In this document: positions 3,290-33,144 of the stretch, piece by piece
Numbering within the stretch: the stretch's first letter is position 1
How the letters are laid out: each line of letters opens with the position of its first letter
From: Phycisphaeraceae bacterium
Lineage (GTDB): Bacteria; Planctomycetota; Phycisphaerae; Phycisphaerales; Phycisphaeraceae
Assembly: GCA_029260675.1 (NCBI GenBank)
Contig: JAJDCV010000282.1
Location: 1-48,307 of the forward strand
DNA length: 48,307 nucleotides
Reading direction: 5' to 3'
Made by a program: the position numbers and the translations under genes
The notes under the pieces: model-generated
The model's database searches: none
Told to the model about the DNA's origin: nothing
What the model saw: only the letters and a program-made list of their open reading frames with translations

Positions 3290-3298
3290 GGGCCGCCT

Positions 3299-4725: not shown

Positions 4726-4750
4726 GTCGGCCTTCCTTGCGTTCTATGGT

Positions 4751-8543: not shown

Positions 8544-8699
8544 AAGCCCGTCCCTTTTACACAGCGCGTCGGGATACCTCACACAAAGCAAGTGCCAAAC
8601 CACGATCACTGTTGGCACCGATGGACGATTCATAATTATCATAAAATCAAGCATTTACAAGCTATATTGGGTTTGTGTCTCCGGCCGGGGCCCCGGCAA

Positions 8700-12842: not shown

Positions 12843-12864
12843 GGCTTGCCTTTCCGGGTGGATG

Positions 12865-14913
12865 CTAGAAGTTCCTCCGTACGCCGGCAAATAAGCTCTG
12901 CGACGTCGTGTCGCTTGAGTTGGAGCTGAACACCTCGTTGCGGATCTGCAGGAACGCGCTGGTCTGTCGATAACGCCAGTCCAGGTCAAACCGCTGCTCA
13001 AAAGACGTGCTGTCTTCGCCGATGTCTTCGGAAAGGTCGAACCACAGCAGCTCGATGCGGCCGTTGAGTTTCCTGCTGAACTCATGAGTGAACGTGCCAC
13101 TGGCGGTGAACTGAGTGGCCGTGTTGTCTTCGTCGATAAACTCGGTCTCGGTGTGCTGAACCCGGATGTCCAGCGAGTCCGTCGATGAGATACGGTCGTG
13201 CAGGATCACCTCGAAGCGGGTCTGCTCGAACGGGGAGATATCGCTGTCGTGGTCGATGTGTTCGGCCTCGAAGATCAGGACGCCGAGCCGGTATTCCACG
13301 CCCACCGCCAACTCCTCGACGTTGTTAGGCACCACCACGATGAGCCGATCGCTGCGGATAGATTCGTCGATGCTCAGGTACCGCATAAACACCCCCAGGC
13401 CGGACAACGGGCCCTCTTGTAAGTCGTACCGAAGGCCCAGGCCGACGGTGTTTGAGGTGACGTTGTGTGCCGGCTCGGGATCGACCGTGTAATCGATCTC
13501 GACGTTCTCGCCGGCGGTGATCCGACCGGTCAGGACGCGCCGCAACTCGATGCGGTTGGCCAGCACGGTGACCCGGTAGTCGATGCCCTCGCTGTAAACA
13601 GCCGGGCCGACCGGGTTGGCGATGTTGTGTACGACGATGCTTGCCGCGTCGATATTGCTGCGTGCGAGGATCACGGGGCTGGGTCCCACAAAAGCGTGCG
13701 GCTCGCGGACAACCTGAAACGGTTGGCCACGTTCGCCGTTGTCTTGCTGATCGTAGCGCAGGCGCAGGTCGCCGGAGAGCCGGCCGCGGGGCACCAGCTT
13801 CGTGTATTCCAGCGCCAGGTCGCCGAACTTCCCATCGGTCTTGAACCCGTCCGAGAAATCCTCGGCATGTCCGCCCACCTGTGCCGTCGTGACGAGGCTG
13901 TCGTACAGCCGATGACGGACAAGCGCATCGCCGTTGTAAGCACGCTGGGTCAGCCCCGCGCGTTGCTGATCCAGCGCGGTGAAGTGGTACCGGGACTCCA
14001 GGGTCGGGGAGTGCGTGAGCCTCACGATCTCATCCCATCGGAACCTCTCTTCGGCGAAGTCGCCCTGCTGATCGAAGAACTCGAAACGCGATCGGATGTT
14101 GCTCTGGTGATCGTTGCCGAAATCCACCGTATGGGTCAGGTCGGTGTCGTGCCGGGTGTAATGGATATCCGCCCTGACCGGCGCAGTCAGGTCGATTTTG
14201 TTAAGCCGGTAGTTGAAATCCAGGTCCTGATATTCCCCGAGGTTGATCTGGCTGGAGATATCTACAAGGTCTTCGATCTGGTCGAAGCTGTTATTCCCGC
14301 TTGTGGACGGATCATTCTGGCTGGTTTTTCGCTGTGTGTAGCTGAAGCTGTGCCGGGCCTGGGGGAGCGTGACCAGCCAGTTGAAACCGGAGGCGGTGTC
14401 CGTGCTCTCGATCGTCGGGCCGAACTGCCGGTCCAGCAGTGTCTGGAACTGCCGGGTGAAGACGGTCAGGGGGGTGTTGCTTCGCCGCAGGATCGTCGCC
14501 CGCGCGTCGTATTCCTGGAGCGTTTCACCGACCTGGCGGTCCCCGCTGGGCGTGTCGCTGTCGAAGTCGTTTTGCTCAAGAATCATCGACCCGAACAGCG
14601 ATAGATGCACCAGGTTAGGGTGCCGGATAAACCCGTCCGTCGAGACCTCGAACAACTCGCGGAACTCCTGCTCGGTCTCGGTGGTGGTGGGTTGCCCGGT
14701 GGTGTCCGAGGTGTCTTCCTGCCAGCGGTACTCCAGCCCCAGCGAAGCATGGACGTTGTCGAACTCCAGCAGCGGCAACTCCCGCCGGGGGTTGATAACG
14801 ATCGGATCCTCCTGGCCATAGACCGGGCCGCAGACCCCAAGCAGCATCGACATCCCGGTGGTCAGTAACGCCGGGCGTGCGGGGTGTCGCACATTCAGTT
14901 TATGCGGTGTCAT
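12865..14913 (-). CDS. large outer-membrane beta-barrel protein (porin-like component)
   Basis: 682 aa with a signal-like N-terminus (...MLLGVCGPVYGQED). There are no long hydrophobic helices. Amphipathic short strands rich in Y/F/R/D/T/N/G alternate throughout. The C-terminus ends ...LFAGVRRNF, with the terminal Phe typical of OMPs. The ATG overlaps the upstream cytochrome stop (ATGA). Confidence 0.65.
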   Translation of the reverse strand: MTPHKLNVRHPARPALLTTGMSMLLGVCGPVYGQEDPIVINPRRELPLLEFDNVHASLGLEYRWQEDTSDTTGQPTTTETEQEFRELFEVSTDGFIRHPNLVHLSLFGSMILEQNDFDSDTPSGDRQVGETLQEYDARATILRRSNTPLTVFTRQFQTLLDRQFGPTIESTDTASGFNWLVTLPQARHSFSYTQRKTSQNDPSTSGNNSFDQIEDLVDISSQINLGEYQDLDFNYRLNKIDLTAPVRADIHYTRHDTDLTHTVDFGNDHQSNIRSRFEFFDQQGDFAEERFRWDEIVRLTHSPTLESRYHFTALDQQRAGLTQRAYNGDALVRHRLYDSLVTTAQVGGHAEDFSDGFKTDGKFGDLALEYTKLVPRGRLSGDLRLRYDQQDNGERGQPFQVVREPHAFVGPSPVILARSNIDAASIVVHNIANPVGPAVYSEGIDYRVTVLANRIELRRVLTGRITAGENVEIDYTVDPEPAHNVTSNTVGLGLRYDLQEGPLSGLGVFMRYLSIDESIRSDRLIVVVPNNVEELAVGVEYRLGVLIFEAEHIDHDSDISPFEQTRFEVILHDRISSTDSLDIRVQHTETEFIDEDNTATQFTASGTFTHEFSRKLNGRIELLWFDLSEDIGEDSTSFEQRFDLDWRYRQTSAFLQIRNEVFSSNSSDTTSQSLFAGVRRNF

Positions 14914-15575
14914 CCCGGCACCGCCTCACCCTGGTCGGGCGTCTGAGGTGATACATCACCGGAATTAATTTCGTTTAGCGCCTCCGGCTTAAGAAAATAA
15001 GTCCGGTCCCCACCGTGGCCGGAGTGGCAATCCAGGCATGATCGTTTCGGGTCCGTGTGCGCCTGGGGGGTCGGCCCCAGTGTGTCGGGCATCGCGTGAC
15101 AGGTGACGCACATGACCCGGGGCGGATCCCGGAGCATGAATACCGTCGTCGACTGGTGCGGGTCGTGGCAGGCCATGCAGTCGCCAACCGCCACGGGCCC
15201 GTGCATCAGCTCGAACTGCTCGGGTTTATTGCCGTGGCATTGGACGCAGACCGAGGCATCGGGCATCAGCGCAGCCGGTTCATGTGAGGTGTGGCAGGCC
15301 TGGCAATTTCCCTCGGAATAAGGCTCGTGGAAGTTGTACTTAATCGCCAGCCGTCTGCGAGCCTGCGCCGCGGGTGAGTTGGATAGTGCTTCTGGCGGGG
15401 CGTTGGGGTCCGGGACGCCGTCGAAGAAGAATGACAGCGTCTCGTAGTGCTCTTCCGGGTTGCAACCGGTCAATGCCAACAGCGGGGGCACGCCCAGGAC
15501 CAGAACAGGCAACAGGTACAGCACCCCGACGAAGCGCTTCCGCCGGACGCAACCTGACCTGACGCGGGCTTTCAT
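14910..15575 (-). CDS. pentahaem c-type cytochrome lipoprotein
   Basis: Five CXXCH motifs (CQACH, CVQCH, CMACH, CVTCH, CLDCH) and a lipobox LLALTGC. The ATG overlaps the NHL gene stop (ATGA). Confidence 0.85.
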   Translation of the reverse strand: MKARVRSGCVRRKRFVGVLYLLPVLVLGVPPLLALTGCNPEEHYETLSFFFDGVPDPNAPPEALSNSPAAQARRRLAIKYNFHEPYSEGNCQACHTSHEPAALMPDASVCVQCHGNKPEQFELMHGPVAVGDCMACHDPHQSTTVFMLRDPPRVMCVTCHAMPDTLGPTPQAHTDPKRSCLDCHSGHGGDRTYFLKPEALNEINSGDVSPQTPDQGEAVPG

Positions 15576-16861
15576 TTCTCAGACCCGGTAGCGCTGTTTT
15601 CCACCGGTGTTTCGACTGGTGGCCGCTGCGGGTCCGTCTTGGGATCAGCCGGCTCGGTGGCGCCTGGTGGCAGCGCCCCGGACCCTGTGTCCGCGCCCCG
15701 GACGTCGGAAACCCCCAGGTTCACTTCCGCCTGGTCCGCGCGGATGTCCTCGGGCGTAGCGCCTGGCTTGAGTTGACCCAGCGCGTAGACCGCGACTTTC
15801 GCCGGCCCGAATTGGTTGGTCACGATCAGCAGCCTCTCGGCCTGGAACGCGGGGTGGATATCCTTCTCAAACAGGTCCAGGTCGCCGTCATGAACCGTCA
15901 CGCCCACGGGCAGGAACATGGCCCCGGGGTGGTCGCCCACGTTACCGAACCAGGTCAGCAGCTTGCCCTGGTGGTTGAAGACCTGGACGTTCTGGAAAGC
16001 GGCATCCACGATGTAGATCCGCCCGTCAACATCGGTCGCCAGGTGCTTGGGCCGGACAAACTCTCCGATCGCGGTCGTGAGTTTCCCGAACCCCATAAGC
16101 AGCTCGCCGTCGGGTGAAAAGATCTGGATCCTGGCCTTAAGCGCATCCCCGACGATGACGCGCCCCTGGCGGTCAACATCAATCCCCAGCGGACGCACGA
16201 ACTGACCGTCTTCCGCGCCGCCGCCCTCCTGGCCGATCCGTCCGATTTCCTGCCCGTTGGATCGGTCCAGGATCAGCACTTGCTTGCTGATATAGTCGGT
16301 GACGTAGATCCGGTCCTGTGTCACGGCCAGAGCACCGGGCTTGAATAGCCCCGGCTCAAAACGTGTCAGGTAGCGCTCGTTCTGGTCATACACGACGATC
16401 CGGTTGGCCCCCAGGTCCGCGACGTAGATCAGCCCGTCGGGCGCAATCGCGACGTCGGTCGGCCTGATCAGGCGGGTGATCCCCCCGCTGCCGATCACAC
16501 GGGTCTGCTGGCTGCGGAGGTCCAGCACGACCACGCTGGGGTTACGGATATCACAGACGTAGATCCGTCCATTGGCCGCCTCCACGCCGTAGGGCTTGTT
16601 GATCGGCAGGACCTGCTGCCCGGCCTCGCCGTAGATAAGCGCATCGAGCTTGCCGCCATCGGGCTCGACGTCCTTACTGAATTGATAGGAGTGAAGGAAT
16701 TGGATCCGGGGCTGATCGGGATAGGGAGGCCAAAAGGAATAGCGCTTGTTGGGCGCTTGGGCGGTGGGCGTGCTCCCGCAGCCGGTCAGGGCCATCAGCG
16801 CGATCAGCCCCGCCAGGGAGGCCTTAGAGAAAGTGCGGGTGATCAAGCGTGTATCCGTCAT
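15572..16861 (-). CDS. NHL-repeat beta-propeller lipoprotein
   Basis: 429 aa, lipobox LMALTGC, six NHL-like units (e.g. PYGVEAANGRIYVCDIRNPSVVVLD, PTDVAIAPDGLIYVADLGANRIVVYD). The tail is Pro-rich. Confidence 0.8.
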   Translation of the reverse strand: MTDTRLITRTFSKASLAGLIALMALTGCGSTPTAQAPNKRYSFWPPYPDQPRIQFLHSYQFSKDVEPDGGKLDALIYGEAGQQVLPINKPYGVEAANGRIYVCDIRNPSVVVLDLRSQQTRVIGSGGITRLIRPTDVAIAPDGLIYVADLGANRIVVYDQNERYLTRFEPGLFKPGALAVTQDRIYVTDYISKQVLILDRSNGQEIGRIGQEGGGAEDGQFVRPLGIDVDRQGRVIVGDALKARIQIFSPDGELLMGFGKLTTAIGEFVRPKHLATDVDGRIYIVDAAFQNVQVFNHQGKLLTWFGNVGDHPGAMFLPVGVTVHDGDLDLFEKDIHPAFQAERLLIVTNQFGPAKVAVYALGQLKPGATPEDIRADQAEVNLGVSDVRGADTGSGALPPGATEPADPKTDPQRPPVETPVENSATGSEK

Positions 16862-17023
16862 AACCAGTTGCTCCCGCCACTTGCCCAGCCCTGAAGCTCA
16901 ATCCACTGCAACGGGTTATAATACCTGTATCCGGAAATCGGTGCCGAGGTCGATAAAAGGCGAGAAGACACGAACGGCGTGGCACCTGTTTTTTTAATTG
17001 AAGCCTTAACAGGAGCCGCTGGT

Positions 17024-17047
17024 CGGGCTGGTCGAGAGACCAGCCCG
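17024..17047 (-). terminator. perfect 10-bp GC-rich stem-loop just downstream of the tetrahaem gene (terminator or attenuator)
   Basis: The arms cgggctggtc and gaccagcccg flank a gaga loop, 19 nt after the stop at 17066. No clear U-tract follows on the minus strand, so its function is uncertain. Confidence 0.35.
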
Positions 17048-17065
17048 CCAGTGGCCTTTTATTGG

Positions 17066-17686
17066 CTATTTTATGTGGCAGGCCAGGCACAGCTGGCTGC
17101 CGTTGTTGGTGACGCGGAGCAACTCTGGCAGGTTCGCCTTATTGTGAACCGAGTGGCAAGACGCGCAACTGACGACGCTCTCGGCCTGACCTGCAACGGT
17201 CATGGACCGGACCCGCACGCCGTTGGCCTTGGGGTCGGGAGCCAAGCCGGTGTCGGCGAAGTCGTACACGGCCACGGCACCGACCGGGTGGTCGTCGCTG
17301 AGGTCGCCCGTGCCGCCACCCATCTGCTTGCTGGCACCGATGAACGTGGTACCGTTGGTCGTGCCGCCGAAGCTATCTAAGGCGATCGACCCGTCGTGGC
17401 AACTCATGCATGCCTGACTGTCACGGTCCAGGCCGGCGAAACCGTCGTTGGATGTCTGGCCTTCATAAAGGGTGTAATTGGCATACGAGGGAACCTCGTG
17501 GTTCCACAATAGCCCAAGCGTGGCGCCATTGGGCGCGTTGTGAGGCGCGTGGCAGGGCTGACAGATCGTCGAGCCAGACCAGCTCTCGGCACTGAAGTCG
17601 TGGGCGGAGCCTGAAAGGGCCGCCGAGGCCACCCCCGCGAAGACCAAGACACAGGCCATCGATAGGATGTGTTGACTGAGTTTCAT
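17066..17686 (-). CDS. small secreted tetrahaem c-type cytochrome
   Basis: ATG at 17686 (MKLSQHILSMACVLVFAGVASA) with GGAG 8 nt upstream. The ORF-track start at 17728 is a TTG. Four CXXCH motifs (CQPCH, CMSCH, CASCH, CLACH). It ends CLACHIK. Confidence 0.8.
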   Translation of the reverse strand: MKLSQHILSMACVLVFAGVASAALSGSAHDFSAESWSGSTICQPCHAPHNAPNGATLGLLWNHEVPSYANYTLYEGQTSNDGFAGLDRDSQACMSCHDGSIALDSFGGTTNGTTFIGASKQMGGGTGDLSDDHPVGAVAVYDFADTGLAPDPKANGVRVRSMTVAGQAESVVSCASCHSVHNKANLPELLRVTNNGSQLCLACHIK

Positions 17687-17768
17687 TTTTACATCTCCAT
17701 TTCCAAAAGGGTTTGTGTGTTCAAACAAGAAAGCTCACCGTCCGTGTCTCGTCGCCACAAGATCTTGG

Positions 17769-18066: not shown

Positions 18067-19134
18067 TCACGGGCCGTCAGCTGTTTCAGCCGGGCCCAAA
18101 CCCTCTGCCGCCGTGCTCTTCTCAAAGGCGTTGCGGTAGGCATTCGATGCCTGCTCATACTCGCCCGCCTGCTGGTGGACCCGGCCCAGGAAGTAGAAGG
18201 CGTCGGCGGGGTCGGGGTTGATTTTCAGGGCCTCGGTCAGCGCGGTGCGAGCCTCGTCGAAACGTTCCAGCGCGACCAGCGCTCGTCCGCGCAGGGTTTG
18301 GATGCGCCAAGGGGGGACCAGGCCGGGCTCGAGCGCATCAAGAACCACCAGGGCCTCGGCGGGCTCGCCGATCATCAGATGGACCTGGGCCAGTGTCAGG
18401 CGGAGTTCAAGGTCGTCGGGGTTGGTGTCCAGCCCGCGTTTTAATTCTTCATGCGCGAGTTTGATCTGACCTTTTTCCAGGAGTCTCTGCGCCAGGTGCA
18501 GGTGGCGTGAGGCGACGTGGTTCGGGGTGCTCCCGACCGTGCCGTTGGTATCCAAGCGTTTCTTGAGTGCTTCGCTGTCGATCGTGCCCCGGGTAAATTC
18601 CAGGTAGGCCCGCATGTCTTTGGTATAGGACTCCCGCAGCCCCGGGAGGCGTGCGATGCGTTCGCCTTGGTCGTTGACGATGACGGTGCTGGGCCAGACG
18701 CGGACCGACATCAGGCCGGACGCTTCGTAATCCGGATCCACCACGACCGGCCAGGGCCACTTTTCCGACCCGGTTAGCTGGGCGGCACCGACCCCCGCGC
18801 CGTGCCCACTGACCACGGCGATGGGCTGCACATCCGCCCCGGTCGCCTCGTCGGTTAAAATCGCACGCAGCTGAGTCATCGCCTCGTCGCTGCGCGCCTG
18901 GTCGGCCATCACGAACAGAACGATGCTGATCTTCCCGGGCGCGGGCACCGAGACGTCTTTGTCGGCGGTGTCGGTCGCCCGCCAGCGGATGGGCTGAGGC
19001 GTTTCCGCCACGTCTTCCTGTCCGTATGCCGTGATGCCGGCGAACAGCGCGGCGAGACACGCGATCACGGGGTACAGCGTTCTCGGGTTGTGATTCGGAT
19101 TGGGTGTGTTGTGTGTCATGTTTGTTGCCCTCAC
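18067..19134 (-). CDS. membrane-anchored CXXC-less redoxin (TlpA-like fold) fused to TPR repeats
   Basis: The GTG at 19134 overlaps the upstream cytochrome stop (GTGA). An alternative ATG at 19119 has GAGGG upstream. The redoxin-like segment ISIVLFVMADQARSDEAM lacks the CXXC. The C-terminal half carries TPR-like repeats (...ALKINPDPADAFYFLGRVHQQAGEYEQA...). It is a paralogue of 28944..30008. Confidence 0.7.
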   Translation of the reverse strand: MRATNMTHNTPNPNHNPRTLYPVIACLAALFAGITAYGQEDVAETPQPIRWRATDTADKDVSVPAPGKISIVLFVMADQARSDEAMTQLRAILTDEATGADVQPIAVVSGHGAGVGAAQLTGSEKWPWPVVVDPDYEASGLMSVRVWPSTVIVNDQGERIARLPGLRESYTKDMRAYLEFTRGTIDSEALKKRLDTNGTVGSTPNHVASRHLHLAQRLLEKGQIKLAHEELKRGLDTNPDDLELRLTLAQVHLMIGEPAEALVVLDALEPGLVPPWRIQTLRGRALVALERFDEARTALTEALKINPDPADAFYFLGRVHQQAGEYEQASNAYRNAFEKSTAAEGLGPAETADGP

Positions 19135-20549
19135 TGGGCTTTAGGTTTGTAATCGACGGGCCTGACTCGATCGTAGGCCTTGGGCTTGTGGCATCCCGGC
19201 GAGCAGGAGCCGCCGGTTTCGGTTTGTTTGTAATTGATCGGCAGTTCCCACTTGCCGTAGGGCACAGACTCCCGCAGGTGCAGCGCAAGTGTGCTGGCGT
19301 GGACGCTGTGGCAGGCGCGGCAGCTTCGGCCACGTGGGTCCTTGTTGACGTGCAGGTAGTGCATATTCGTGCGGCCGTTTCGGAAACCGGTGAGCCCCTT
19401 GGCGTCGGGCGTGAGCACCAGCTGCTCGTCGTGACATTCGAAACACAAGCGGTATGACTCGATATCAAACGGCTGGTAGAACGTCGCGGGGTACTCGTCG
19501 ATCAAGAGTTTTGCGAACTCCGAACCGTGGACGTTGTGACAACCCCCGCAGCTCCCCTCGGCGACCGGGCCGTGCTTGATGAGGTCGGGGTCCTTGACTT
19601 CCGAAACCGACGCAACCGCCCTGCCGTCGTCCGTCGTGATGGGCTGATCGTGGCAGGTCAGGCAGAGATCGACGGGCTTGTCTTTCATGAGTTTTGCCAG
19701 GTCGCCGCCGTGGGGCGTGTGGCAGTTGACGCAGCCGCGTTCCTGTGTGACGGCGGAGTGCTGGTGCTTCGCCTCGCTGACGGCCTGCTTGATGTCCTCG
19801 TGGCAGGTCGTGCAAAGCTCGCCCGGGGCCTGCTTGACCAGCATGGGGAAGTCCGTTGCGTGGGCGTTGTGACAACCCAGGCAATCCTCTTGAGCCGGCT
19901 CGTGGACAAACCCGACCTCCGTGAGTTGCTGCCGCATCTCCATGTGGCAGCCGACGCACAACTCCATGCCCGTCTCGATCAACAGCTTGGGGTTCTTGGA
20001 TGCGTGCGGCTCGTGACACATCCCGCATGCCCCGGCGGCGACCGGGCCATGAACAAATTGCTTGTCGCCTACCACGTCCTGATGGCAAGATGCACACAGC
20101 TCGCTCATCGAAGGCTTCTTCAGTGAGTTGCGATCGAACCCGCCGTGGGGGTCGTGGCATCCTGTGCAGTCGCGCGTGACCAGCGGGTCGTGAAGCGTCT
20201 GGGCGTCTTCGACCTCGATCACGTGGCAGAAGGTGCAGGCATCCGCCTTCTCGCGCGCGGGAACGTAGCTGTGGGTTTTGGCGTCGGTGAGTGTGTGGCA
20301 GGCGTCGCAGGCGTTGACGTTTACCGGGCCGTGCAGCACGTCGTGGCGCTTGACGTTCGCGTGACAGTCCGCGGTGACGCAGCTGACCTGCTCGATCTCG
20401 GTGGTGGGCTTGGAGGGGGCTTGGGCAGCCAACTCCCCGGCGTTGGCTGGATCAGATGCGGGGGCCTGGGCGCGGAGCGTGGTCGCGATGCCCGCGAGTC
20501 CGATCGCCACGATCAACAAGAAGGCCGAGGTTAGGTGGTAGTACTTCAT
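19131..20549 (-). CDS. 15-haem-motif c-type cytochrome (paralogue 1)
   Basis: 13 CXXCH motifs plus an N-terminal CVTADCH (CX4CH) and a C-terminal GGSCSPGCH (CX3CH). It has a signal peptide. The ATG overlaps the upstream gene stop (ATGA). Confidence 0.85.
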   Translation of the reverse strand: MKYYHLTSAFLLIVAIGLAGIATTLRAQAPASDPANAGELAAQAPSKPTTEIEQVSCVTADCHANVKRHDVLHGPVNVNACDACHTLTDAKTHSYVPAREKADACTFCHVIEVEDAQTLHDPLVTRDCTGCHDPHGGFDRNSLKKPSMSELCASCHQDVVGDKQFVHGPVAAGACGMCHEPHASKNPKLLIETGMELCVGCHMEMRQQLTEVGFVHEPAQEDCLGCHNAHATDFPMLVKQAPGELCTTCHEDIKQAVSEAKHQHSAVTQERGCVNCHTPHGGDLAKLMKDKPVDLCLTCHDQPITTDDGRAVASVSEVKDPDLIKHGPVAEGSCGGCHNVHGSEFAKLLIDEYPATFYQPFDIESYRLCFECHDEQLVLTPDAKGLTGFRNGRTNMHYLHVNKDPRGRSCRACHSVHASTLALHLRESVPYGKWELPINYKQTETGGSCSPGCHKPKAYDRVRPVDYKPKAQ

Positions 20550-22174
20550 GAAGGGTCCCCATCTGTGGAGGTATCGCCGGGCCGGATCGTGGTCGGCGAC
20601 GGGTCAGCCGGTGGCGTTGCCGGGGGTGTCGCCGGGGGTGTCGGCTTGGGTGTCGGCCCACTGGAACGCCGGTAGGTTTTTTGTTCGTGGCATCCCGGTG
20701 AGCACGACCCGCCGTTCTCGGTCTTTGTGAAATTGATGGGCATGGCCCACTGCGAACCCTCGAAAGGCACGTCGGCGGCGATGTGGTCCGGGCGGTCGCT
20801 GCCGTGGATGTCGTGGCAGGCCTTGCAGGTCCGGCCTTTCTTGTCGCGATGGACGTGCAGGTAGTGCAGGTTCTGATCGCCCTCGCGGAAGCCGGTGAGC
20901 TGATCGGTGGTCTCGGTCAGCACCAGGTCGGCGCTGTGGCAGCTGAAGCACAGCGCGTAGTTAGTGAGGTCGAACGAGGCGTAGAAGGTGTCGGGGAAGG
21001 ATTGTCGCAGGAGGCGGGCGTTCTCGCCGCCGTGGACGCTGTGGCAGGCCGCGCAGTCCCCGGCTCGCACGGGCCCGTGCAGGAAACGGCGGTTCAGGGT
21101 CGACTGCATGTCGGCGATGGTCCGGCCGTCGGTCGCCTCGATGGGTTCGTTGTGGCATCGCATGCACAGGTGGTCGGCCCGGTCACGAAGCAGGTTCGGG
21201 CCGGCCGCGGCGTGTGGGTCGTGGCAGTTGGCACAGCCGTCTTCGATAAACAGCGCATCGTGCGATACCGGCTGCGATTTGATGCGCTCGGCCATCTGCT
21301 CGTGACAAGCGAAGCAGCTATCCGCAACCGGGGCGGGTAACTGATACGGGAACGCGCTGGTATGTGCGTCGTGACAACCGGTGCAGTTCTCTTTGGCGGG
21401 CTCGTGGATAAACGGCGAGTTCGCGAGCTTGACCTGGATACCCGTGTGGCAACTGAAACAGTGATCGGGCTGCTCACCCTGGCGCAGCAGGTTGCTTGCG
21501 TTGGCCTCGTGTGGTTGGTGGCAGACGGTGCACTGACCAGAAGCAAACGGGCCGTGGGCGTACTTCTGTAACGGTGTTTCGTGGCACGTCGCGCAGGTTA
21601 GTTCGATGCTCGGCTGTGTCAGCAGAAACTTGGCGTCGGACCGGTGCGGGTCGTGGCAGGCGACACAGCCTGAGTCCTCAATCGCCGCGTGCTGTTGTGT
21701 GCGTGCGCCGAGGACGGGATGGCAGAAGGTGCAGGTCTGGTTGCCGGCTCGTTTCATGGGGTAGACATGGGCACCGGCATCGGGCTCGTGGCAGGACTGG
21801 CAGTTGGCGACCGCAACCGGGCCGTGGACGTGCTTGGCGTTGACCAGGCCGGTGTGGCAGCCGGGCGTGACGCACGAAGCGTCTTCAGGCAGAGCCGTAG
21901 TCGGGCGGGGCAAAGACTCGACGGGGTCGGTCATCTGCAAGGCGTCTATACCGGCGGGGTCAGGGTGTTGGGTTTTAGTTCCGATGGGCGATTCGTAGTG
22001 CCCGGTTGACGCCGCGGCGGGCGCATCGGTCTTGCGTGCCGACCCGTCTGGGTCGCTCGGTTCTTCGTGCCCACAGCCCGAGAGCAATAGAAACAGGCAC
22101 ACACAAAGCAAACCCGGCGCGCATCGCCTCCACCTGCTGGGACCGGCTCGTGATTTAGCCGGGCGTTGGATCAC
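20546..22174 (-). CDS. 15-haem-motif c-type cytochrome lipoprotein (paralogue 2)
   Basis: The GTG start overlaps the upstream stop (GTGA). Lipobox LLLSGC. It has 13 CXXCH motifs plus CVTPGCH and GGSCSPGCH, and a Pro/Thr-rich tail PTPKPTPPATPPATPPADPSP. Confidence 0.85.
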   Translation of the reverse strand: MIQRPAKSRAGPSRWRRCAPGLLCVCLFLLLSGCGHEEPSDPDGSARKTDAPAAASTGHYESPIGTKTQHPDPAGIDALQMTDPVESLPRPTTALPEDASCVTPGCHTGLVNAKHVHGPVAVANCQSCHEPDAGAHVYPMKRAGNQTCTFCHPVLGARTQQHAAIEDSGCVACHDPHRSDAKFLLTQPSIELTCATCHETPLQKYAHGPFASGQCTVCHQPHEANASNLLRQGEQPDHCFSCHTGIQVKLANSPFIHEPAKENCTGCHDAHTSAFPYQLPAPVADSCFACHEQMAERIKSQPVSHDALFIEDGCANCHDPHAAAGPNLLRDRADHLCMRCHNEPIEATDGRTIADMQSTLNRRFLHGPVRAGDCAACHSVHGGENARLLRQSFPDTFYASFDLTNYALCFSCHSADLVLTETTDQLTGFREGDQNLHYLHVHRDKKGRTCKACHDIHGSDRPDHIAADVPFEGSQWAMPINFTKTENGGSCSPGCHEQKTYRRSSGPTPKPTPPATPPATPPADPSPTTIRPGDTSTDGDPS

Positions 22175-23718
22175 GGCTGCGCCTCGCTTGGGGTGGCATC
22201 GATCCGGGGCACGGATTTCAGTGCGTCCAGAGTGTATTTGTAGTTCTCGATCGAGACGTTGAGCAGGGCCGTCGCGTAGGTGACGTTGTGCACGCCGTGA
22301 CCGAGTTCGACCAGGCGGACATTGTGATCCGCGTCGTCCATGAGGCGTTGGAGCTTGAGAAGCTCATCGGGCGGTATCACCGCGGCAGCCAGATCCCCGC
22401 TTGCCAGTATTTGCTGCTGTTTGGTGTATGCCAGGTGCTCGCCGATCGTGTCACGCCACTCTTCGAGCACACCGCTGTAATGACCTTCATGGCAGTAATC
22501 ACAGGAGGCCTGGGCCGCGAGGTAGGTTTGCCCGGTGACCTCGGCGACTTCCTGGCTGAACTCACGCTGCTGGTGGCACGCAACGCAATCGACCTGGGCG
22601 CTATACATCGGGCTGGGCATGTCCGGCACGCCCCGGCCACCGATACCGCTGTACAAATTAGCCGGGCCGTTGTGCGACAGGTCGTGGCACTGGGCACAGC
22701 TGCTCTTCTCCCCGCCGACATGCGGGTCCGGCCCCGCCATCAACCCCCCCGTAGCCGCGAGCCCGGCCGTGAGGTGGTGCACGATCTGCACGTGGCAGCT
22801 GGAGCACTCGACCTTGTGATCGGTGATGTGCGTCTTGTGCATGAAGCTGGTCTCGCCGTAACGGGCAACCTGCGTCGCTTTGTTGTGGCAGGTCCAGCAC
22901 AGCTGCTTGGGCACGGCCCCGTCGCCCGATACCGCGTCGACATGACAGTTTTCACACGTCACACCACGGTCGATGTAGTCTTCGTGATTGAATACCCCTG
23001 TCGCGAGCTTGATCTCCGAAGCCGGTGCTTCGTGGCACGATCGGCATCCGCCCAGCGTCTGGTCGTCGCGCCCGTGTTCCAGGCCTTTGAAATGGCACAG
23101 GAAGCAGGTGTCCAGCGTCACGACCAGGTGCTGACCCTGCACGATCTGGGAGTGGCACGACACGCACCGCAGCTCCTTGCCCCGTCGAAGATCGGTCAGG
23201 TGCGGCGTGTGGTCGAACTTGATCGTGATCTCCGTGCCGCGCTGGGTTTGGATTGGCCAGTCGACTTTGCCTTCGAGCAGGCGTTGGCTGTGGCATTCCT
23301 CACGCATACACGAGCTGTCCCGGACCTCCGCGTGGGGCTTGGAGCCGTAGGTGTTGGTGATGTATTTCACGCCCTGGCTGGAGGCCTGCCACTTGCCTTG
23401 AAGCGTCTTCTCGATCCCCGGCTCGAAGTGGCACAGCACACACGCCACGTCTTTGTGCGTCGAGGTGTGCCAGGCCTGGTAATACGGCTCCATGATGTGA
23501 CATGACCGGCAGAAATCCGGCTGCATCGAGTACTCGGCAAAGCCCAACGACCCGACGACAAATCCCACTAATACCAACAACACCCATCCCCACCGGCTTG
23601 GTACGACGCGCAGCCATCGCCCTTCCCGCCGGCGCAAACCCAGCCACCGCCAGCCACGCAGGCGATGATCGGGAGCCGACACTTCTTCGATAGGACGATC
23701 CGAATTCTCTGCACACAT
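22171..23718 (-). CDS. membrane-anchored NapC/NirT/NrfH-type multihaem cytochrome (12 motifs)
   Basis: A single N-terminal TM segment (WGWVLLVLVGFVVGSLGF) is followed by FCRSCHIMEPYYQAWHTSTHKDVACVLCH, the classic NapC/NirT start. In total there are 11 CXXCH motifs plus CMREECH (CX4CH). Confidence 0.8.
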   Translation of the reverse strand: MCAENSDRPIEEVSAPDHRLRGWRWLGLRRREGRWLRVVPSRWGWVLLVLVGFVVGSLGFAEYSMQPDFCRSCHIMEPYYQAWHTSTHKDVACVLCHFEPGIEKTLQGKWQASSQGVKYITNTYGSKPHAEVRDSSCMREECHSQRLLEGKVDWPIQTQRGTEITIKFDHTPHLTDLRRGKELRCVSCHSQIVQGQHLVVTLDTCFLCHFKGLEHGRDDQTLGGCRSCHEAPASEIKLATGVFNHEDYIDRGVTCENCHVDAVSGDGAVPKQLCWTCHNKATQVARYGETSFMHKTHITDHKVECSSCHVQIVHHLTAGLAATGGLMAGPDPHVGGEKSSCAQCHDLSHNGPANLYSGIGGRGVPDMPSPMYSAQVDCVACHQQREFSQEVAEVTGQTYLAAQASCDYCHEGHYSGVLEEWRDTIGEHLAYTKQQQILASGDLAAAVIPPDELLKLQRLMDDADHNVRLVELGHGVHNVTYATALLNVSIENYKYTLDALKSVPRIDATPSEAQP

Positions 23719-23730
23719 AATGGATGACTC

Positions 23731-25926
23731 CTAGATCAAACCAAGCCCCGCCAGGACGATCAACGTGACCATCGCCAGCCCGATCGACATCGCCAATACA
23801 CCTATGACTAAAGAGGCCCTGCGCTGCCAAACCGGTGGCGTCTCCATACGCAGCGACTCCAGTTCGCCCGACTGCCTCAGCTGGCGGTATTCCATCGGCC
23901 GTTCGTGACGCAACTCGTCCTCGTCCACCACCCCGGTGAAGATCACATCATCCACCGGGAACTTCTCCGGGCGCAGATTCGCGTTAAAGAAGTGGATCGT
24001 AAAGATGAACCCCACCGCCAGCAGCGCTTCATACCCGTGCACGATGGTTGCGATGTTGAATCCCCACCCCGGGATGACGATCGAGAACACCGCGGGGAAC
24101 CAGAGCATCAACCCGGTGCCCCCGATGATGAAAGTCCCGACGATCTCGGCCCAGTAGTCGAACTTTTCCCAGTAGGTCCAACGGTCAAGCGCCGGCTTGC
24201 CCTTGCCGGTGAAGAACCAGCGGAACATCCCCAGGCAATCGGAGAAATCCTTGAGCCTGGGCAGGAGGGTGTGCGGGCCGGTGAGGAGTTTACGCGCCGG
24301 TTGCCGGCTGAATCGTTTGTAGATCCCCACGAAATGGATCACGAAATTCAAGCACAGGATGATCGCAAAGAGCCGATGCCAGAGCCCCGCGGCGTACCCC
24401 CCGCCCAGCATCACGGTCAACCCCTTGGCCCATCCCTGGTCGGAGAAGAACAAAGGCATCCCGGTCAGTGTCAGCCCGAAGAAGGTGATCGCGACCAGCG
24501 CGTGGTTCAGCCGGTTGATCTTGCGGAAACGCTTGATCGACTTGCCCTTGGCGGCGGTGTGCAGCTTCGCCTTGCGTGCGGTGTGTCGGCGGCGCTCGAT
24601 CAGCGACCGGATCAGCCACAGCACCGAGTGCACGCCGTAGAACACGAACGTGATGCTCATCAGGATCACGAAGTAGAGCCAGACGCCGTGGAGGATCGGG
24701 AAGTTCTCCCCGTCACGGTAATCGGCGTGCGGCATGAACTGTGCGAACTTGGCGTTGGCGGATTTGTGACAGGATCGGCAGGTGTCCACGAGGTTGTCCG
24801 CGTGAAGCCGGGACATCGGGTCGGCGACCGGCTGGATGTCGTGCGCCCCGTGGCAGTCGCTGCACCGGGCGGCCCGGCTGGAGCCCAGCTCGTTGACCTG
24901 CCCGTGATAACTCATCCGGTAGGTTTCGTAGAGCGAGGCCTTACCCCGCTTGTCGTTGTCGATGCGGTCGTGGCACTGACCGCACTCCCCGATGATGTCA
25001 CGCATAAACCCGGGGGTGGCGGCGTGGGTGATCGCGTGGGAGGCGTGGCAGTCGCTGCAGACCGGGGCGTTGGGGTCGCCTGCCGTGAGCTTTTGGCCGT
25101 GGATGCTGTTGGCGTAGACCTCCTCGATGCCGCGGTGGCATTGGCCGCAGGTTTCGGGGACCTGATTACGATGGATCTTTGAGGCCTCGTCGGCGGCGGG
25201 CCTGATTTCGTGCCCGCCGTGACAGTCGGCGCAGGTCGCGGCGACGATCAGCCCCGCCATCTTCACCGCCCGGCCGTGGACGCTCTGCATGTAGCTCTGA
25301 ACGTATTCGGTCTCATCGTGCCCGTTGGTTGTCTTCTCCTGGTGCTGGCTGTGGCAGCCACCGCAGAGATTGATGACGTTCAGCGGGTAGGTTTTCGACC
25401 GGCGGTCCGAGGACGGGTAGACGTCGTGCCCGCCGTGGCAATCGGCACAGGACGGCGCGCGGACGTCCCCGTCGGCGGCCGCCTCGGCATGGATGCCCCG
25501 GCGGTGTTCGGCCGCGGCCGGCTCGTGACAACTGGCCGTGCAACTGGCCGGCTCGAGTGTCATCGCGTGAGGCAAGACCTCCGCGTCCTGGTGGCAATCC
25601 GTGCATGCCAGCGCGGCGTGCGGGCCGTCCATAAGCGCATCAGGCGGCGTGAAAAGCGTTGGCCGGGATTCGGACTGACGATCCAGCAACATCGGGTCCT
25701 GCGGCGGCGCGACCATCGACCGGCGTTCCGATGGAGACAGGTCGGTGATCCGCCGTTGGCCGTGGCAGTCGTAGCAGCGGTCGTTCTGGGTCTGGGCCTG
25801 GGTCAACCTGACCGCCTGTGCCTGAGGCCAAGGCCCGGTCACCAGGAGAGCAACCATCGCCAGCAGGCCGGACGCGGCTAGACCGGCGGCGGTGGGATTG
25901 CTCGAGATCGGTTTCGGCCTTGGCAT
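23731..25926 (-). CDS. CbcL-like fusion: periplasmic multihaem c domain (11 motifs) plus C-terminal b-type cytochrome membrane domain (HydC/FdnI-like)
   Basis: Signal peptide, then 10 CXXCH motifs plus CTASCH. About six TM helices follow, with conserved His residues (NHALVAITFFG, LWHRLFAIILCLNFVIHF, IVHGYEALLAVGFIFTIHFFN). Confidence 0.8.
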   Translation of the reverse strand: MPRPKPISSNPTAAGLAASGLLAMVALLVTGPWPQAQAVRLTQAQTQNDRCYDCHGQRRITDLSPSERRSMVAPPQDPMLLDRQSESRPTLFTPPDALMDGPHAALACTDCHQDAEVLPHAMTLEPASCTASCHEPAAAEHRRGIHAEAAADGDVRAPSCADCHGGHDVYPSSDRRSKTYPLNVINLCGGCHSQHQEKTTNGHDETEYVQSYMQSVHGRAVKMAGLIVAATCADCHGGHEIRPAADEASKIHRNQVPETCGQCHRGIEEVYANSIHGQKLTAGDPNAPVCSDCHASHAITHAATPGFMRDIIGECGQCHDRIDNDKRGKASLYETYRMSYHGQVNELGSSRAARCSDCHGAHDIQPVADPMSRLHADNLVDTCRSCHKSANAKFAQFMPHADYRDGENFPILHGVWLYFVILMSITFVFYGVHSVLWLIRSLIERRRHTARKAKLHTAAKGKSIKRFRKINRLNHALVAITFFGLTLTGMPLFFSDQGWAKGLTVMLGGGYAAGLWHRLFAIILCLNFVIHFVGIYKRFSRQPARKLLTGPHTLLPRLKDFSDCLGMFRWFFTGKGKPALDRWTYWEKFDYWAEIVGTFIIGGTGLMLWFPAVFSIVIPGWGFNIATIVHGYEALLAVGFIFTIHFFNANLRPEKFPVDDVIFTGVVDEDELRHERPMEYRQLRQSGELESLRMETPPVWQRRASLVIGVLAMSIGLAMVTLIVLAGLGLI

Positions 25927-26177: not shown

Positions 26178-27137
26178 TTACGCCTGTGTGTGCATAGGGT
26201 CCAGGAAACTGTGTTTGTAATACACCAGCAGCCCCGCAAAACTCAGCAGCAGGCACACCGCCAGCACCCCCATCACCGTCTGCTGCCGGCGCACTTCCCG
26301 CTGGCGCTTGATCAGCTCGTGGGTCTCGGTCGTGTGATCGGTGACTTCCTGGATTTCCGCTGCGAAGTTATCGATCTCGCGCATGTTGAAGCTGTGGAAG
26401 ATCTGCCGGAGCTTGGAGTGGACCTCACCGACGTGGTGATGGAGTTTTTCCAACTCGAGGTTGCGGTACCCCCAGGACTCCAGTTCGTTGTAGAGCTGAC
26501 CCGACTCGCTGATACGCTGCTCGGTCTCGGTCAACGTCTGCTTGATCTGCTTAACCACCGCCATGGTGGAGGCTTCGTGACAGGGGCTGCAACGCCCCGC
26601 CTCGGCCCGGCCTGCGGTATCGATGATCTGGGGCGTCGCGTCGGTGATCTTGTGTGAGCCCTGGCCGTGGCAGTACAGGCAGGTCGGGTCGCCGAAGTCA
26701 CCGTGCGGGCTGCCCAGGTGTTTTTCCTTGATCTGGTCGTGGCACTTGCCGCAGAAGTAGGAGACGCTTCGGCCGGTGGTGTTGCTGACGATGCCGTCCT
26801 GTGAACGCCGCATCGTCAGGAACTCGGGGTTGCGTCGCTGGTGTGCGGCACGCTTCAGGGCGTCGGTGGATTCGAACTGATCCGGGCGGACCGCCGGGTT
26901 GCCCCCGTGACAGCCATCGCACCCGACGTTGGCCTCGTAATGGACGCTGTGCTTCCACTGCAGCTCGACGATCTCGCTGGATCGGCCGGGCAGATCCCGA
27001 TGGCACTGCACGCAGGCGTTGTCGGCATAGCGGTCGGTCGGGGCCGAAGGCTCCGCCGCCGGGGGGGTGGTTTTGTCCGCGGGGCTGGCGAGGGTTAACG
27101 CCGCCACCAGGCAAGCCGACAGGATGGAGCCGGTCAT
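26178..27137 (-). CDS. pentahaem c-type cytochrome with C-terminal TM anchor (probable c-subunit of the Rieske/cyt b complex)
   Basis: Five CXXCH motifs (CVQCH, CDGCH, CGKCH, CLYCH, CSPCH), then a coiled-coil-like segment and a C-terminal TM helix VMGVLAVCLLLSFAGLLVYY. The ATG overlaps the subunit IV stop (ATGA). Confidence 0.8.
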   Translation of the reverse strand: MTGSILSACLVAALTLASPADKTTPPAAEPSAPTDRYADNACVQCHRDLPGRSSEIVELQWKHSVHYEANVGCDGCHGGNPAVRPDQFESTDALKRAAHQRRNPEFLTMRRSQDGIVSNTTGRSVSYFCGKCHDQIKEKHLGSPHGDFGDPTCLYCHGQGSHKITDATPQIIDTAGRAEAGRCSPCHEASTMAVVKQIKQTLTETEQRISESGQLYNELESWGYRNLELEKLHHHVGEVHSKLRQIFHSFNMREIDNFAAEIQEVTDHTTETHELIKRQREVRRQQTVMGVLAVCLLLSFAGLLVYYKHSFLDPMHTQA

Positions 27138-27808: not shown

Positions 27809-27834
27809 CGGTCACTCCTGGACTCGTGAGCCTC

Positions 27835-28494: not shown

Positions 28495-28503
28495 CACGGT
28501 TCC

Positions 28504-33124: not shown

Positions 33125-33144
33125 ATGCTTTACCTGCCCGGGGT

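Follow-up and report, generated by a model that had tools for sequence, protein, structure and literature searches.

Results

The window analysed here, a 48,307-nt stretch of DNA from a Phycisphaeraceae bacterium, carries on its minus strand three genes for paralogous 15-haem cytochromes, designated A, B and C. Paralogue A (19131..20549) encodes a secreted protein of 472 aa, paralogue B (20546..22174) a protein of 542 aa with a lipobox (LLSGC), a linker of ~65 residues and a Pro/Thr tail, and paralogue C (30005..31447) a protein of 480 aa, its gene being the first of a Rieske/cytochrome b operon. Rechecking of the ORF coordinates placed all three where the original prediction had them, although the interval that it gave, 19131..22174, holds A and B but not C. 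Each protein opens with a CX4CH motif (CVTADCH in A, codons 20361..20381; CVTPGCH in B, codons 21854..21874; CQSVNCH in C, codons 31277..31297), contains exactly 13 CXXCH motifs and closes with a CX3CH motif that reads CSPGCH in all three (codons 19188..19205, 20687..20704 and 30101..30118, respectively), in agreement with the counts first reported. The common motif string and a pairwise identity of 41–42%, rising to 52–53% over the C-terminal ~120 residues, bear out the single blueprint that had been proposed; in A, the terminal module lies at ~19164..19493. As also predicted, the trio comprises one lipoprotein with a Pro/Thr tail (B) and two proteins with plain signals, the N-termini of A and C being hydrophobic, signal-like segments.

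The neighbours of these genes, all on the minus strand, include genes for membrane complexes. Two putative quinol dehydrogenase genes (22171..25926) lie upstream of B and A: a CbcL-like gene (23731..25926) with 11 haem-c motifs and a cytochrome b561/FdnI-like membrane domain, and a NapC/NirT-like gene (22171..23718) with one transmembrane (TM) segment and 12 haem motifs, both identified by Pfam (PF01292 and PF03264), NCBIfam, and motif and TM counts. The Rieske/cytochrome b module (26178..28947; PF00355, PF00033 and PF00032) comprises a Rieske protein (28504..28947), a cytochrome b6-like protein (27835..28497), a subunit IV-like protein (27134..27808) and, from haem and TM counts, a pentahaem cytochrome c with a C-terminal TM segment (26178..27137). 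B and A thus stand directly behind the CbcL-like and NapC-like genes, and C heads the Rieske/cytochrome b operon, as originally described; of the two operons proposed, the distinct membrane-complex neighbours were verified, but the two groups are co-directional and only 251 nt apart.

Both A and C are followed by a gene for a CXXC-less thioredoxin-fold protein with TPRs. The partner of A (18067..19134), a secreted protein recognised by Pfam TPR families, has a weak StoA-like match at its N-terminus and lacks CXXC, which is also absent from 45 of its 46 homologues. The paralogous partner of C (28944..30008), 24% identical to it, scored below the cut-off for Pfam AhpC-TSA/Redoxin and reached 49.2 bits for TPR_CcmH_CycH (cut-off, 42). 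The start of A's partner shares 4 nt with the stop of A, the partner of C overlaps both C and the Rieske gene by 4 nt each, and the NapC-like gene overlaps B (GTGA) as B overlaps A (ATGA). Through these 4-nt start/stop overlaps, the NapC-like gene, B, A and A's partner are translationally coupled, as are C, its partner and the Rieske gene.

A putative outer-membrane conduit cluster lies downstream (10123..17728, minus strand; Pfam and motif counts). It encodes a 4-haem cytochrome (17066..17728), an NHL propeller (15572..16861), a 5-haem lipoprotein cytochrome (14910..15575), a predicted outer-membrane beta-barrel of 682 aa (12865..14913), a second NHL propeller (11751..13100) and a 12-haem cytochrome (10123..11754). 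The AlphaFold2 (AF2) model of the barrel (pLDDT 85.9) has ~28 long strands, and its Foldseek matches were large outer-membrane barrels, including MtrB (6r2q_B, TM 0.41/0.43); the protein ends in RRNF. This NHL/cytochrome/barrel gene order is repeated at many loci, and the full run of 17 genes that begins with C and ends with the 12-haem cytochrome recurs in GCA_029260655.1. The same island contains System I cytochrome c maturation genes (2585..8654, minus strand), namely CcmE of the CXXXY variant (8127..8654), CcmF (6022..8184), a 442-aa protein of no named family (4751..6079) and CcmA/B/C-like genes (3973..4725, 3299..3976 and 2585..3289). System I (Ccm) matures both the CX3CH and the CX4CH spacing.

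By repeat analysis, each cytochrome consists of one extra N-terminal haem site (CX4CH) followed by seven doubled-CXXCH units. The doubled-CXXCH profiles PF09699/TIGR01905 scored 182–219 bits over 6–7 stretches per protein (PF09699 on A, 209 bits over 6 stretches), and an HMM built from units 2–5 detected units 1, 6 and 7. The last unit contains a beta-hairpin insertion as well as the invariant CX3CH site. The repeat had initially been assigned to a Geobacter-type CX4CH/CXXCH domain (TIGR01904), which was rejected as its identity, only C giving a match and that below threshold (18.3 against 27 bits). The AF2 model of A reached a pLDDT of 91.3 and a pTM of 0.78. MtrA (6r2q_A) was the only significant PDB match, both by sequence (E 6e-20) and by fold (E 1.5e-7, TM 0.61 on target, 278 columns); as AF2 models contain no haems, the pairing of His with haems and the linearity of the chain are presumptive. 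The C-terminal CX3CH module seems portable: 998 cluster representatives were found at E<=1e-3, in which it ends wires of many lengths, from 7- to 15-haem and concatenated forms. No solved structure matched it by sequence.

A, B and C belong to a family of 15-haem, MtrA-like cytochromes that is widespread but has no name. Among 102 aligned relatives from ~12 phyla, the last site was CX3CH in all, and the first was CX4CH in 93, CXXCH in 5 and CX3CH in 3. Of the 120 best database homologues, 88 kept the full motif string of A, B and C, and another 28 deviated solely at site 9, which is CX3CH there, a pattern far beyond chance. Both spacings are recognised, documented haem-binding variants (PMC11492766); therefore, the term non-canonical used for them at first was too strong, and the notable part is how strictly their positions are conserved. 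All 45 motif residues (15 Cys-Cys-His) were invariant in an alignment of 118 sequences, together with exactly 15 further His (in A, H73, 93, 120, 135, 167, 182, 216, 230, 264, 280, 326, 341, 397, 400 and 417), which fits 15 bis-His haems. Judging from these residues, the CX4CH and CX3CH sites are presumably occupied by haem, and each further His may be the distal ligand of one haem. In the terminal module, the non-ligand residues F357, Y358, T387, F389, R390, R408, W434, Y459 and R461 were also invariant in this alignment, which would seem to exceed the needs of simple electron transfer.

Alignment and phylogeny with database homologues separated A, B and C into three clades in a neighbour-joining tree (without support values), with 38–41% identity between and 45–52% within clades, and each clade keeps its own neighbours across Planctomycetota genomes. 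In the C clade, the Rieske gene is the first or second detected downstream neighbour in 8 of 13 cases, and so it is for the C of the window; in the B clade, ~10 of 19 orthologues have a lipobox, and a Pro/Thr tail is not a conserved feature. The three genes are old Planctomycetota lineages with fixed neighbours. Instead of the local triplication that had been supposed, the paralogy is old and runs through the whole lineage, in a family represented by one copy in most other phyla.

Discussion

The closest known system is the MtrA/DmsE/MtoA decahaem group (TIGR03508; 6R2Q chain A from Shewanella baltica MtrCAB), which is likewise built of doubled-CXXCH units (PF09699) and, like A, B and C, consists of secreted electron carriers in extracellular-electron-transfer gene clusters. 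However, A, B and C have 15 haems instead of 10, and their TIGR03508 scores (155.6, 124.2 and 119.5 bits) are below the family cut-off of 192.2. Beyond MtrA, they possess the additional N-terminal CX4CH haem and a three-haem end module with the beta-hairpin and the invariant CX3CH. Their genes, unlike that of MtrA, are not beside an MtrB-type porin gene and are coupled to quinol dehydrogenase genes and to a thioredoxin-fold/TPR partner.

Several other systems are comparable in part. The DFE_448-451 and DFE_461-465 clusters of Desulfovibrio ferrophilus were proposed as outer-membrane cytochrome complexes, and their 12- and 14-haem cytochromes, predicted to be periplasmic, as MtrA-like (Deng et al. 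2018, PMC5815863). By cluster description, the likeness, NHL-repeat beta-propeller proteins interspersed among multi-haem cytochromes, concerns the downstream cluster and not A, B and C, from which DFE_461 and DFE_449 differ in their reported 14 and 12 haems, haem counts being the only point compared. Phycisphaerae were found in a metagenome survey to carry mostly "DFE variants or CbcL" (bioRxiv 10.1101/2022.03.26.485925). The Geobacter conduit cytochromes ExtA, ExtG and OmaB, with 5–15 haems (PMC6148476), are of the same periplasmic multi-haem type; the GSU2203 family NF041028 scored 142.8 bits, below its cut-off of 325, and the likeness of GSU3218 is confined to its reported 15 haems (bioRxiv 10.1101/2022.05.22.492868). 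The family itself has members in Geobacteraceae, Geomonas and Desulfuromonadales, whose only annotation is "cytochrome c3 family protein", and no characterised Geobacter orthologue was identified from the NCBIfam profile scores and the relatives in Geobacteraceae. Tetrahaem cytochrome c3/HmcA, after which the databases name the family, is similarly bis-His and multi-haem with CX4CH beside CXXCH. However, the fold match is MtrA and not c3, and the profiles were below cut-off (PF02085, 19.7 against 22.9 bits; HmcA/TmcA, 30–36 against 400 bits).

Based on these data, A, B and C are probably periplasmic electron wires of 15 bis-His haems that lead from quinol oxidation to an outer-membrane conduit within an extracellular-electron-transfer island. 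Each secreted protein would hold its haems in one continuous MtrA-like chain. B and A would be fed by the two quinol dehydrogenases encoded just upstream, CbcL-like and NapC-like, C by the Rieske/cytochrome b complex via its pentahaem subunit, and all three would hand electrons towards the barrel/NHL/cytochrome conduit, or the flow may be reversed during electron uptake. Docking may take place at the conserved specialised haems of both chain ends, and the CXXC-less thioredoxin-fold/TPR protein may be a dedicated partner of A and C, which would either chaperone the apocytochrome or serve as a scaffold for docking. As the barrel gene is 4–16 kb from A, B and C, with other genes between and none adjoining, these proteins could have other acceptors, and family members in several phyla have no recognisable barrel or quinol dehydrogenase in their vicinity.

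The relationship to MtrA, the sole structural relative, raises the question of whether the 15-haem proteins are its true equivalents, threaded through the 682-aa barrel across the outer membrane. The barrel is MtrB-sized with an MtrB-like predicted fold, and a single 15-haem gene abuts the cytochrome/NHL/barrel cluster in several Planctomycetota loci (L032, L040, L046, L058, L075, L034 and L051). Such an insertion is unlikely, however: immediately before the barrel gene, where an inserted partner is usually encoded, lies the gene for the 5-haem lipoprotein; translational coupling ties A, B and C to inner-membrane modules; 15 kb separate C from the barrel gene; and no barrel homologue is detectable near many carriers in other phyla.

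The unusual conservation of the end module, with its invariant non-ligand residues, its portability as an end-cap and its lack of resemblance to any solved structure by sequence, could also be expected if the module were catalytic or ligand-binding, the protein being a terminal reductase or oxidase that receives electrons over a 12-haem wire and acts on a soluble periplasmic substrate. We consider this improbable. There are as many invariant non-motif His as haems, so that no haem is obviously five-coordinate; there is no similarity to catalytic modules of the NrfA, HAO, OTR or MccA type, and the NCBIfam matches are restricted to MtrA/DmsE-like and HmcA-like electron carriers. Moreover, the 12-haem cytochrome encoded in the outer-membrane cluster terminates in a related CX3CH module, which is easier to reconcile with a docking or terminal-haem role than with one specific chemistry.

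The shared blueprint and the similar predicted charge of the cores (pI 6.0–6.2) would suit periplasmic electron reservoirs (capacitors) that are redundant and lack specific partners, their gene order reflecting co-regulation only, and multi-haem redundancy is common in electroactive bacteria such as Geobacter (PMC6148476). This explanation is improbable, given that the distinct neighbours have been kept despite the divergence between the clades, that the genes are coupled translationally to different membrane complexes, and that the lipoprotein tendency and long linker are confined to the B clade. Finally, although spacings other than CXXCH are rarer, it is very improbable that the CX4CH and/or CX3CH sites are haem-free (disulfide or metal) and the proteins 13- or 14-haem cytochromes, since both sites have an invariant Cys, Cys and His, the distal His match in number, both spacings are documented haem binders (PMC11492766), and the switches at sites 1 and 9 (the latter between CXXCH and CX3CH) show the spacings to be interchangeable at bona fide haem positions.

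Returning to the periplasmic wires, the observations consist of motif architecture, conservation, fold similarity and gene order, and from them we infer haem occupancy, partners, direction of electron flow and physiological role. For the possible division of labour that the original prediction suggested, the support is the gene order conserved across Planctomycetota; such clade-specific neighbours are what long-standing sub-functionalisation would look like. If this is true, A and B on the one hand and C on the other would link different quinol-oxidising complexes to extracellular electron transfer in this uncultured Phycisphaerae (Planctomycetota) bacterium.

Results

The three paralogous cytochromes compared here, A (19131..20549, 472 aa), B (20546..22174, 542 aa) and C (30005..31447, 480 aa), all on the (-) strand, carry their haem motifs in an identical order, namely one CX4CH (CVTADCH, CVTPGCH and CQSVNCH, respectively), thirteen CXXCH and one CX3CH (CSPGCH in each), giving 15 by motif count. 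The original prediction described this blueprint accurately, and its ORFs, its motif string and the lipobox and tail of B were all recovered; its placement of the three paralogues at 19131–22174 holds for A and B, and C lies outside that range. Alignment of the three proteins gave one shared motif string, with pairwise identities of 41–42% overall and 52–53% across the last ~120 residues. B has a lipobox (LLSGC), a low-complexity linker of ~65 residues and a Pro/Thr-rich tail; the N-termini of A and C are hydrophobic. Of the B-clade proteins, about half have a lipobox, as do 1 of 22 A-clade and 1 of 12 C-clade proteins. The Pro/Thr tail lacks conservation, and predicted pI and charge did not separate the three clades. 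With their CXnCH motifs, a signal sequence or lipobox in each, and Ccm maturation genes in the window, A, B and C qualify as predicted c-type cytochromes.

As read from the sequence, each protein consists of an extra N-terminal haem site (CX4CH) and seven units of the form H-x7-9-CXXCH-xx-H ... CXXCH. Unit 6 bears an insertion of ~13 residues; unit 7 bears one of ~16 residues, predicted to form a beta-hairpin, and its second site is the CX3CH. An HMM built from units 2–5 of 102 relatives matches units 1, 6 and 7 in all three proteins at 18–50 bits. The C-terminal module ending in CX3CH (the end-cap) is therefore a diverged pair of doubled-CXXCH units and no foreign domain.

Family profiles place A, B and C firmly among the doubled-CXXCH domain proteins, whose domain is built of repeated units of ~41 residues with two CXXCH each: PF09699 (Paired_CXXCH_1) scored 209.2, 198.0 and 219.4 bits against a cut-off of 20.6, over 6–7 stretches, and TIGR01905 scored 190.2, 182.6 and 208.9 bits against 25.2. 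The DmsE/MtrA decahaem family (TIGR03508) remained under its cut-off of 192.2 with 155.6, 124.2 and 119.5 bits, and its members have ten haem motifs against 15 here. Scores also fell under the cut-off for the GSU2203 family (NF041028; 142.8, 104.2 and 101.0 against 325), cytochrome c3 (PF02085; B only, 19.7 against 22.9), HmcA (30.5 and 36.2 against 400) and TmcA (16.6 against 114). The "Geobacter-type" CX4CH/CXXCH signature suggested earlier was not borne out, as the CxxxxCH/CxxCH domain (TIGR01904) matched only C, at 18.3 bits (E 0.0014) against a cut-off of 27.

The AlphaFold2 model of A, computed from an alignment of 118 sequences, had a mean pLDDT of 91.3 (88–96 in the C-terminal module) and a pTM of 0.78. 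Its sole significant relative of solved structure was MtrA of the Shewanella baltica MtrCAB complex (6r2q_A; sequence E 6e-20), which Foldseek matched to the model at E 1.5e-7 and a target-normalised TM of 0.61 over 278 columns with 26% identity. A terminal-module profile matched nothing meaningful among PDB sequences. By analogy, A, B and C would be MtrA-like in their working, yet they stand outside the MtrA family.

In the window, the three genes lie in two strings on the (-) strand. The first runs from C through a thioredoxin-fold/TPR gene (28944..30008), a Rieske gene, a cytochrome b6-like gene and a subunit IV-like gene to a pentahaem cytochrome with a C-terminal TM segment. The second, 251 nt beyond, comprises a CbcL-like gene, a NapC/NirT-like gene, B, A and a second thioredoxin-fold/TPR gene (18067..19134). 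GTGA/ATGA overlaps of 4 nt join NapC-like/B, B/A, A/TPR partner, C/TPR partner and TPR partner/Rieske. No convincing intrinsic terminator was found in the 251-nt gap between the two strings, and a sigma-70 promoter scan gave promoter-like sites at no more than the shuffle level. The CbcL-like protein has 11 haem c motifs (one CX3CH), 5–6 TM-like segments and a cytochrome b561/FdnI-like membrane domain. The NapC/NirT-like protein (22171..23718, (-)) has 12 haem motifs (one CX4CH) and a single TM-like segment; an "ImcH-like" label was dropped for it on account of this layout, since ImcH has three TM helices, a CX3CH beside the membrane and six CXXCH (PMC6295460). Variant haem-motif spacings are common throughout the island, for example in this pair of dehydrogenase-like proteins (22171..25926, (-)), and the tabulated genes of the window carry 94 haem motifs together.

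A further cluster (10123..17728) begins 338 nt past the second string and encodes, in order, a 4-haem cytochrome, an NHL propeller, a 5-haem lipoprotein cytochrome, a putative barrel, a second NHL propeller and a 12-haem cytochrome. The barrel protein (12865..14913, (-), 682 aa) has about ten database homologues, no Pfam match and a C-terminal Phe (...RRNF); four genes separate it from A and fifteen from C. Predicted by AlphaFold2 from an alignment of database homologues (pLDDT 85.9), it consists of ~28 long antiparallel strands with a small beta domain inserted at residues ~399–477. Its profile matched nothing meaningful among PDB sequences; its fold matches large outer-membrane barrels, and the highest TM among the top matches was to MtrB (6r2q_B, 0.41/0.43).

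A System I maturation set is present in the window (CcmA/B/C, CcmE and CcmF). The CcmE homologue (8127..8654, (-); best NCBIfam E 5e-23, under the equivalog cut-offs) has CASKY in place of the haem-binding HXXXY, which suggests a variant System I in this organism; this CXXXY variant of CcmE occurs in Desulfovibrio and archaea. A dedicated haem lyase for the odd motifs was not adopted, as the one CcmF of the window appears to fit a general CcmABC-CcmE-CcmF set and as general Ccm systems tolerate both odd spacings; a second lyase may be encoded elsewhere in the genome. Between the ccmA-like gene and ccmF lies a 442-aa protein (4751..6079, (-)) with hydrophobic N- and C-terminal segments and no Pfam or NCBIfam match. 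Its homologues adjoin CcmF in one compared locus (L053) and lie near the island in another (L032), and the protein is possibly a maturation factor that has so far escaped recognition. A 276-aa protein with 6 CXXCH (9207..10037, (+)), between the NHL/cytochrome cluster and ccmE, is the only cytochrome gene here on the opposite strand.

Upstream of C, the stretch 31790..35252 (-) encodes a PhnD-like periplasmic binding protein, a HAMP histidine kinase-like protein and a second histidine kinase. In four compared loci (L002, L003, L018 and L053), this trio stands directly before the CbcL-like/NapC-like/B/A string, a position that suggests a dedicated sensor for the island. Just past the sensor genes is a radical SAM/SPASM-domain protein (35868..37133, (+)).

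A neighbour-joining tree of 102 family members, built without support values, placed A, B and C in three separate Planctomycetota clades, each with its own gene neighbours, as labelled by best BLAST matches to the window proteins (diverged barrels or dehydrogenases of other phyla may be missed by such labels). B-type genes stand after a CbcL-like or NapC-like gene and ahead of an A-type gene; A-type genes have the thioredoxin-fold/TPR gene next downstream; and C-type genes come before a series of thioredoxin-fold/TPR, Rieske, cytochrome b, subunit IV and pentahaem cytochrome genes. Identity averages 45–52% inside clades and 38–41% across them. In the assembly GCA_029260655.1, the whole stretch of 17 genes from C to the 12-haem cytochrome is syntenic, and its A homologue is 73% identical. 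Outside Planctomycetota, the family gene is usually single.

In 48 of 99 cases, the next gene downstream encodes the thioredoxin-fold/TPR protein, many of the other cases being at contig ends, and the pairing was seen in Nitrospirota, Geobacteraceae, Desulfuromonadales and Campylobacterota. The two TPR partners in the window are secreted paralogues (24% identity), each translationally coupled to a 15-haem gene. Both have a weak ResA/StoA/AhpC-like N-terminal domain, and one of the two scores above the cut-off for a CcmH/CycH-type TPR domain. Since CXXC is absent in 45 of 46 homologues, the partner is predicted to be a redox-inactive thioredoxin fold. It may be a docking scaffold or an apocytochrome chaperone, as are the TPR proteins CcmI and NrfG.

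The database search yielded 4391 matches at E<=1e-10. The best 120 of these are full-length at 50–90% identity and bear names no more specific than "cytochrome c3 family protein" or "predicted CXXCH cytochrome". A genome scan with one genome per species gave relatives at 35–57% identity (the top match, at 57%, in a Phycisphaera sp. MAG), nearly all with the same string of one CX4CH, thirteen CXXCH and one CX3CH. The carriers include Phycisphaerae, other Planctomycetota, Nitrospirota/Thermodesulfovibrionia, Ignavibacteria, Bacteroidota/Chlorobi, Acidobacteriota, Aminicenantes, Campylobacterota, Gammaproteobacteria, Desulfuromonadales/Geobacteraceae and Deferribacteres. Taken together, these data point to one large family, strongly conserved and as yet unnamed, that spans about a dozen phyla.

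The terminal-module profile matched 998 cluster representatives at E<=1e-3 among 1.84 billion, 811 of them at <=1e-10 and 361 at <=1e-30. Among the best 150 of the 998, the 15-haem string was the commonest (41), and the end-cap also closes 7-, 9-, 10-, 11- and 13-haem proteins as well as concatenated forms; many of the shorter motif strings are probably fragments. One concatenated protein of 1629 aa (P0241) has ~56 haem motifs arranged as four wires, each closed by a CX3CH end-cap (CVAGCH, CVAGCH, CRAGCH and CSRCCH). In the window, a related end module (Y-x-LC-x-x-CH ... CXXCH ... CTLLCH, the last a CX3CH) closes the 12-haem cytochrome (10123..11754, (-)), so that the end-cap is common to periplasmic and presumably outer cytochromes.

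Discussion

The crossing of the periplasm by electrons is understood in only a few model organisms: Geobacter uses small soluble periplasmic cytochromes, and in Shewanella CymA, FccA and STC feed MtrA. The most economical reading of our data as a whole, which we regard as fairly probable, is that A, B and C serve as haem wires in the periplasm. The CbcL-like and NapC-like quinol dehydrogenases would feed electrons to B and A, and the Rieske/cytochrome b complex would feed C via the pentahaem subunit; all three would pass the electrons on towards the barrel/NHL/cytochrome conduit and its 12-haem outer cytochrome. In Desulfovibrio ferrophilus, NHL/cytochrome clusters of this kind have been suggested to form outer-membrane cytochrome complexes (PMC5815863), and the flow might be reversed during electron uptake, as proposed for that organism. 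A lake-metagenome survey mentioned "DFE variants or CbcL" in Phycisphaerae (bioRxiv 10.1101/2022.03.26.485925).

In each of A, B and C, the CX4CH and CX3CH sites stand at opposite ends of the sequence. In a linear chain like that of MtrA, their haems would lie at the ends of the wire and so offer natural docking points. The 10 haems of MtrA span ~80 A, and a 15-haem chain scaled from it would measure ~120 A. A tethered B and a soluble A could act in series to bridge a wide periplasm, which might explain why the gene is multiplied in Planctomycetota only. It seems unlikely that any of the three is a porin-inserted true equivalent of MtrA: loci exist where a single 15-haem gene abuts a barrel cluster, but here the gene directly before the barrel gene encodes the 5-haem lipoprotein cytochrome, and the three 15-haem genes are themselves coupled to inner-membrane modules.

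In the 118-sequence alignment, all 45 motif Cys and His residues are invariant, and exactly 15 additional His are invariant as well (in A numbering H73, 93, 120, 135, 167, 182, 216, 230, 264, 280, 326, 341, 397, 400 and 417). Each haem could thus have a distal ligand of its own, and on the simplest interpretation each protein would hold 15 bis-His haems. The invariant non-ligand residues of the end module are many, including Y358, R390, R408, W434, Y459 and R461, and could befit a catalytic or ligand-binding site; the 15:15 ratio of haems to His and the lack of similarity to catalytic multihaem enzymes speak against this, and we consider it doubtful. Equally doubtful is the view of A, B and C as redundant capacitors, against which the conservation of gene order clade by clade speaks.

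Comparison with relatives is consistent with haem at the sites of unusual spacing. Ccm systems (System I) accept both CX3CH and CX4CH spacings. In the alignment of 102 family members, 93 have CX4CH at site 1, 5 have CXXCH and 3 have CX3CH. At site 9, 99 have CXXCH and 3 have CX3CH, a spacing that 28 of the 120 closest database homologues also show there; at site 15, the last, all 102 have CX3CH. Since the spacings swap at one aligned position, these sites appear to act as haem loops and not as disulfides or metal sites, consistent with putative haem sites at CX4CH and CX3CH, and it is highly improbable that they are empty of haem. Both are established haem-binding motifs (PMC11492766).

The 15-haem family is of the same kind as MtrA/DmsE/MtoA and, by their descriptions, resembles the periplasmic cytochromes of the Geobacter Ext/Pcc systems and the D. 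ferrophilus DFE clusters. It differs from all of these in haem number and in its fixed motif string, in its invariant CX3CH end-cap and dedicated CXXC-less thioredoxin-fold/TPR partner, and in its physical coupling to three kinds of quinol-oxidising module. Our literature searches turned up no name for the family and no characterisation of it, only passing mentions: GSU3218 of G. sulfurreducens is reported to have 15 haems and to be differentially expressed (bioRxiv 10.1101/2022.05.22.492868), and a range of "5 to 15 hemes" was given for Geobacter conduits (PMC6148476).

Beyond the haem-wire reading, we tentatively suggest, as a possibility, a previously unrecognised, phylum-spanning "trunk line", in which a 15-haem cytochrome and its CXXC-less TPR partner would plug CbcL-like, NapC-like and Rieske-cytochrome b modules into outer-membrane conduits. 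The CX3CH end-cap would then be a specific docking or reactive site, and Planctomycetota would have multiplied the module (the B and A tandem, plus C) for an unusually wide periplasm.

Should the family serve as the trunk line of extracellular electron transfer through the periplasm in the groups that carry it, it would provide a useful genomic marker and, given cultured carriers such as Geomonas spp. and Fontivita pretiosa, a tractable target. Phycisphaerae are usually seen as polysaccharide degraders. As we infer from sequence, the present genes imply extracellular electron transfer in this class, and, if the trunk role is true, its members would be able to respire or take up electrons from extracellular substrates. 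Such a family would not be surprising in principle to a specialist, yet it is large, well-defined and open to experiment.
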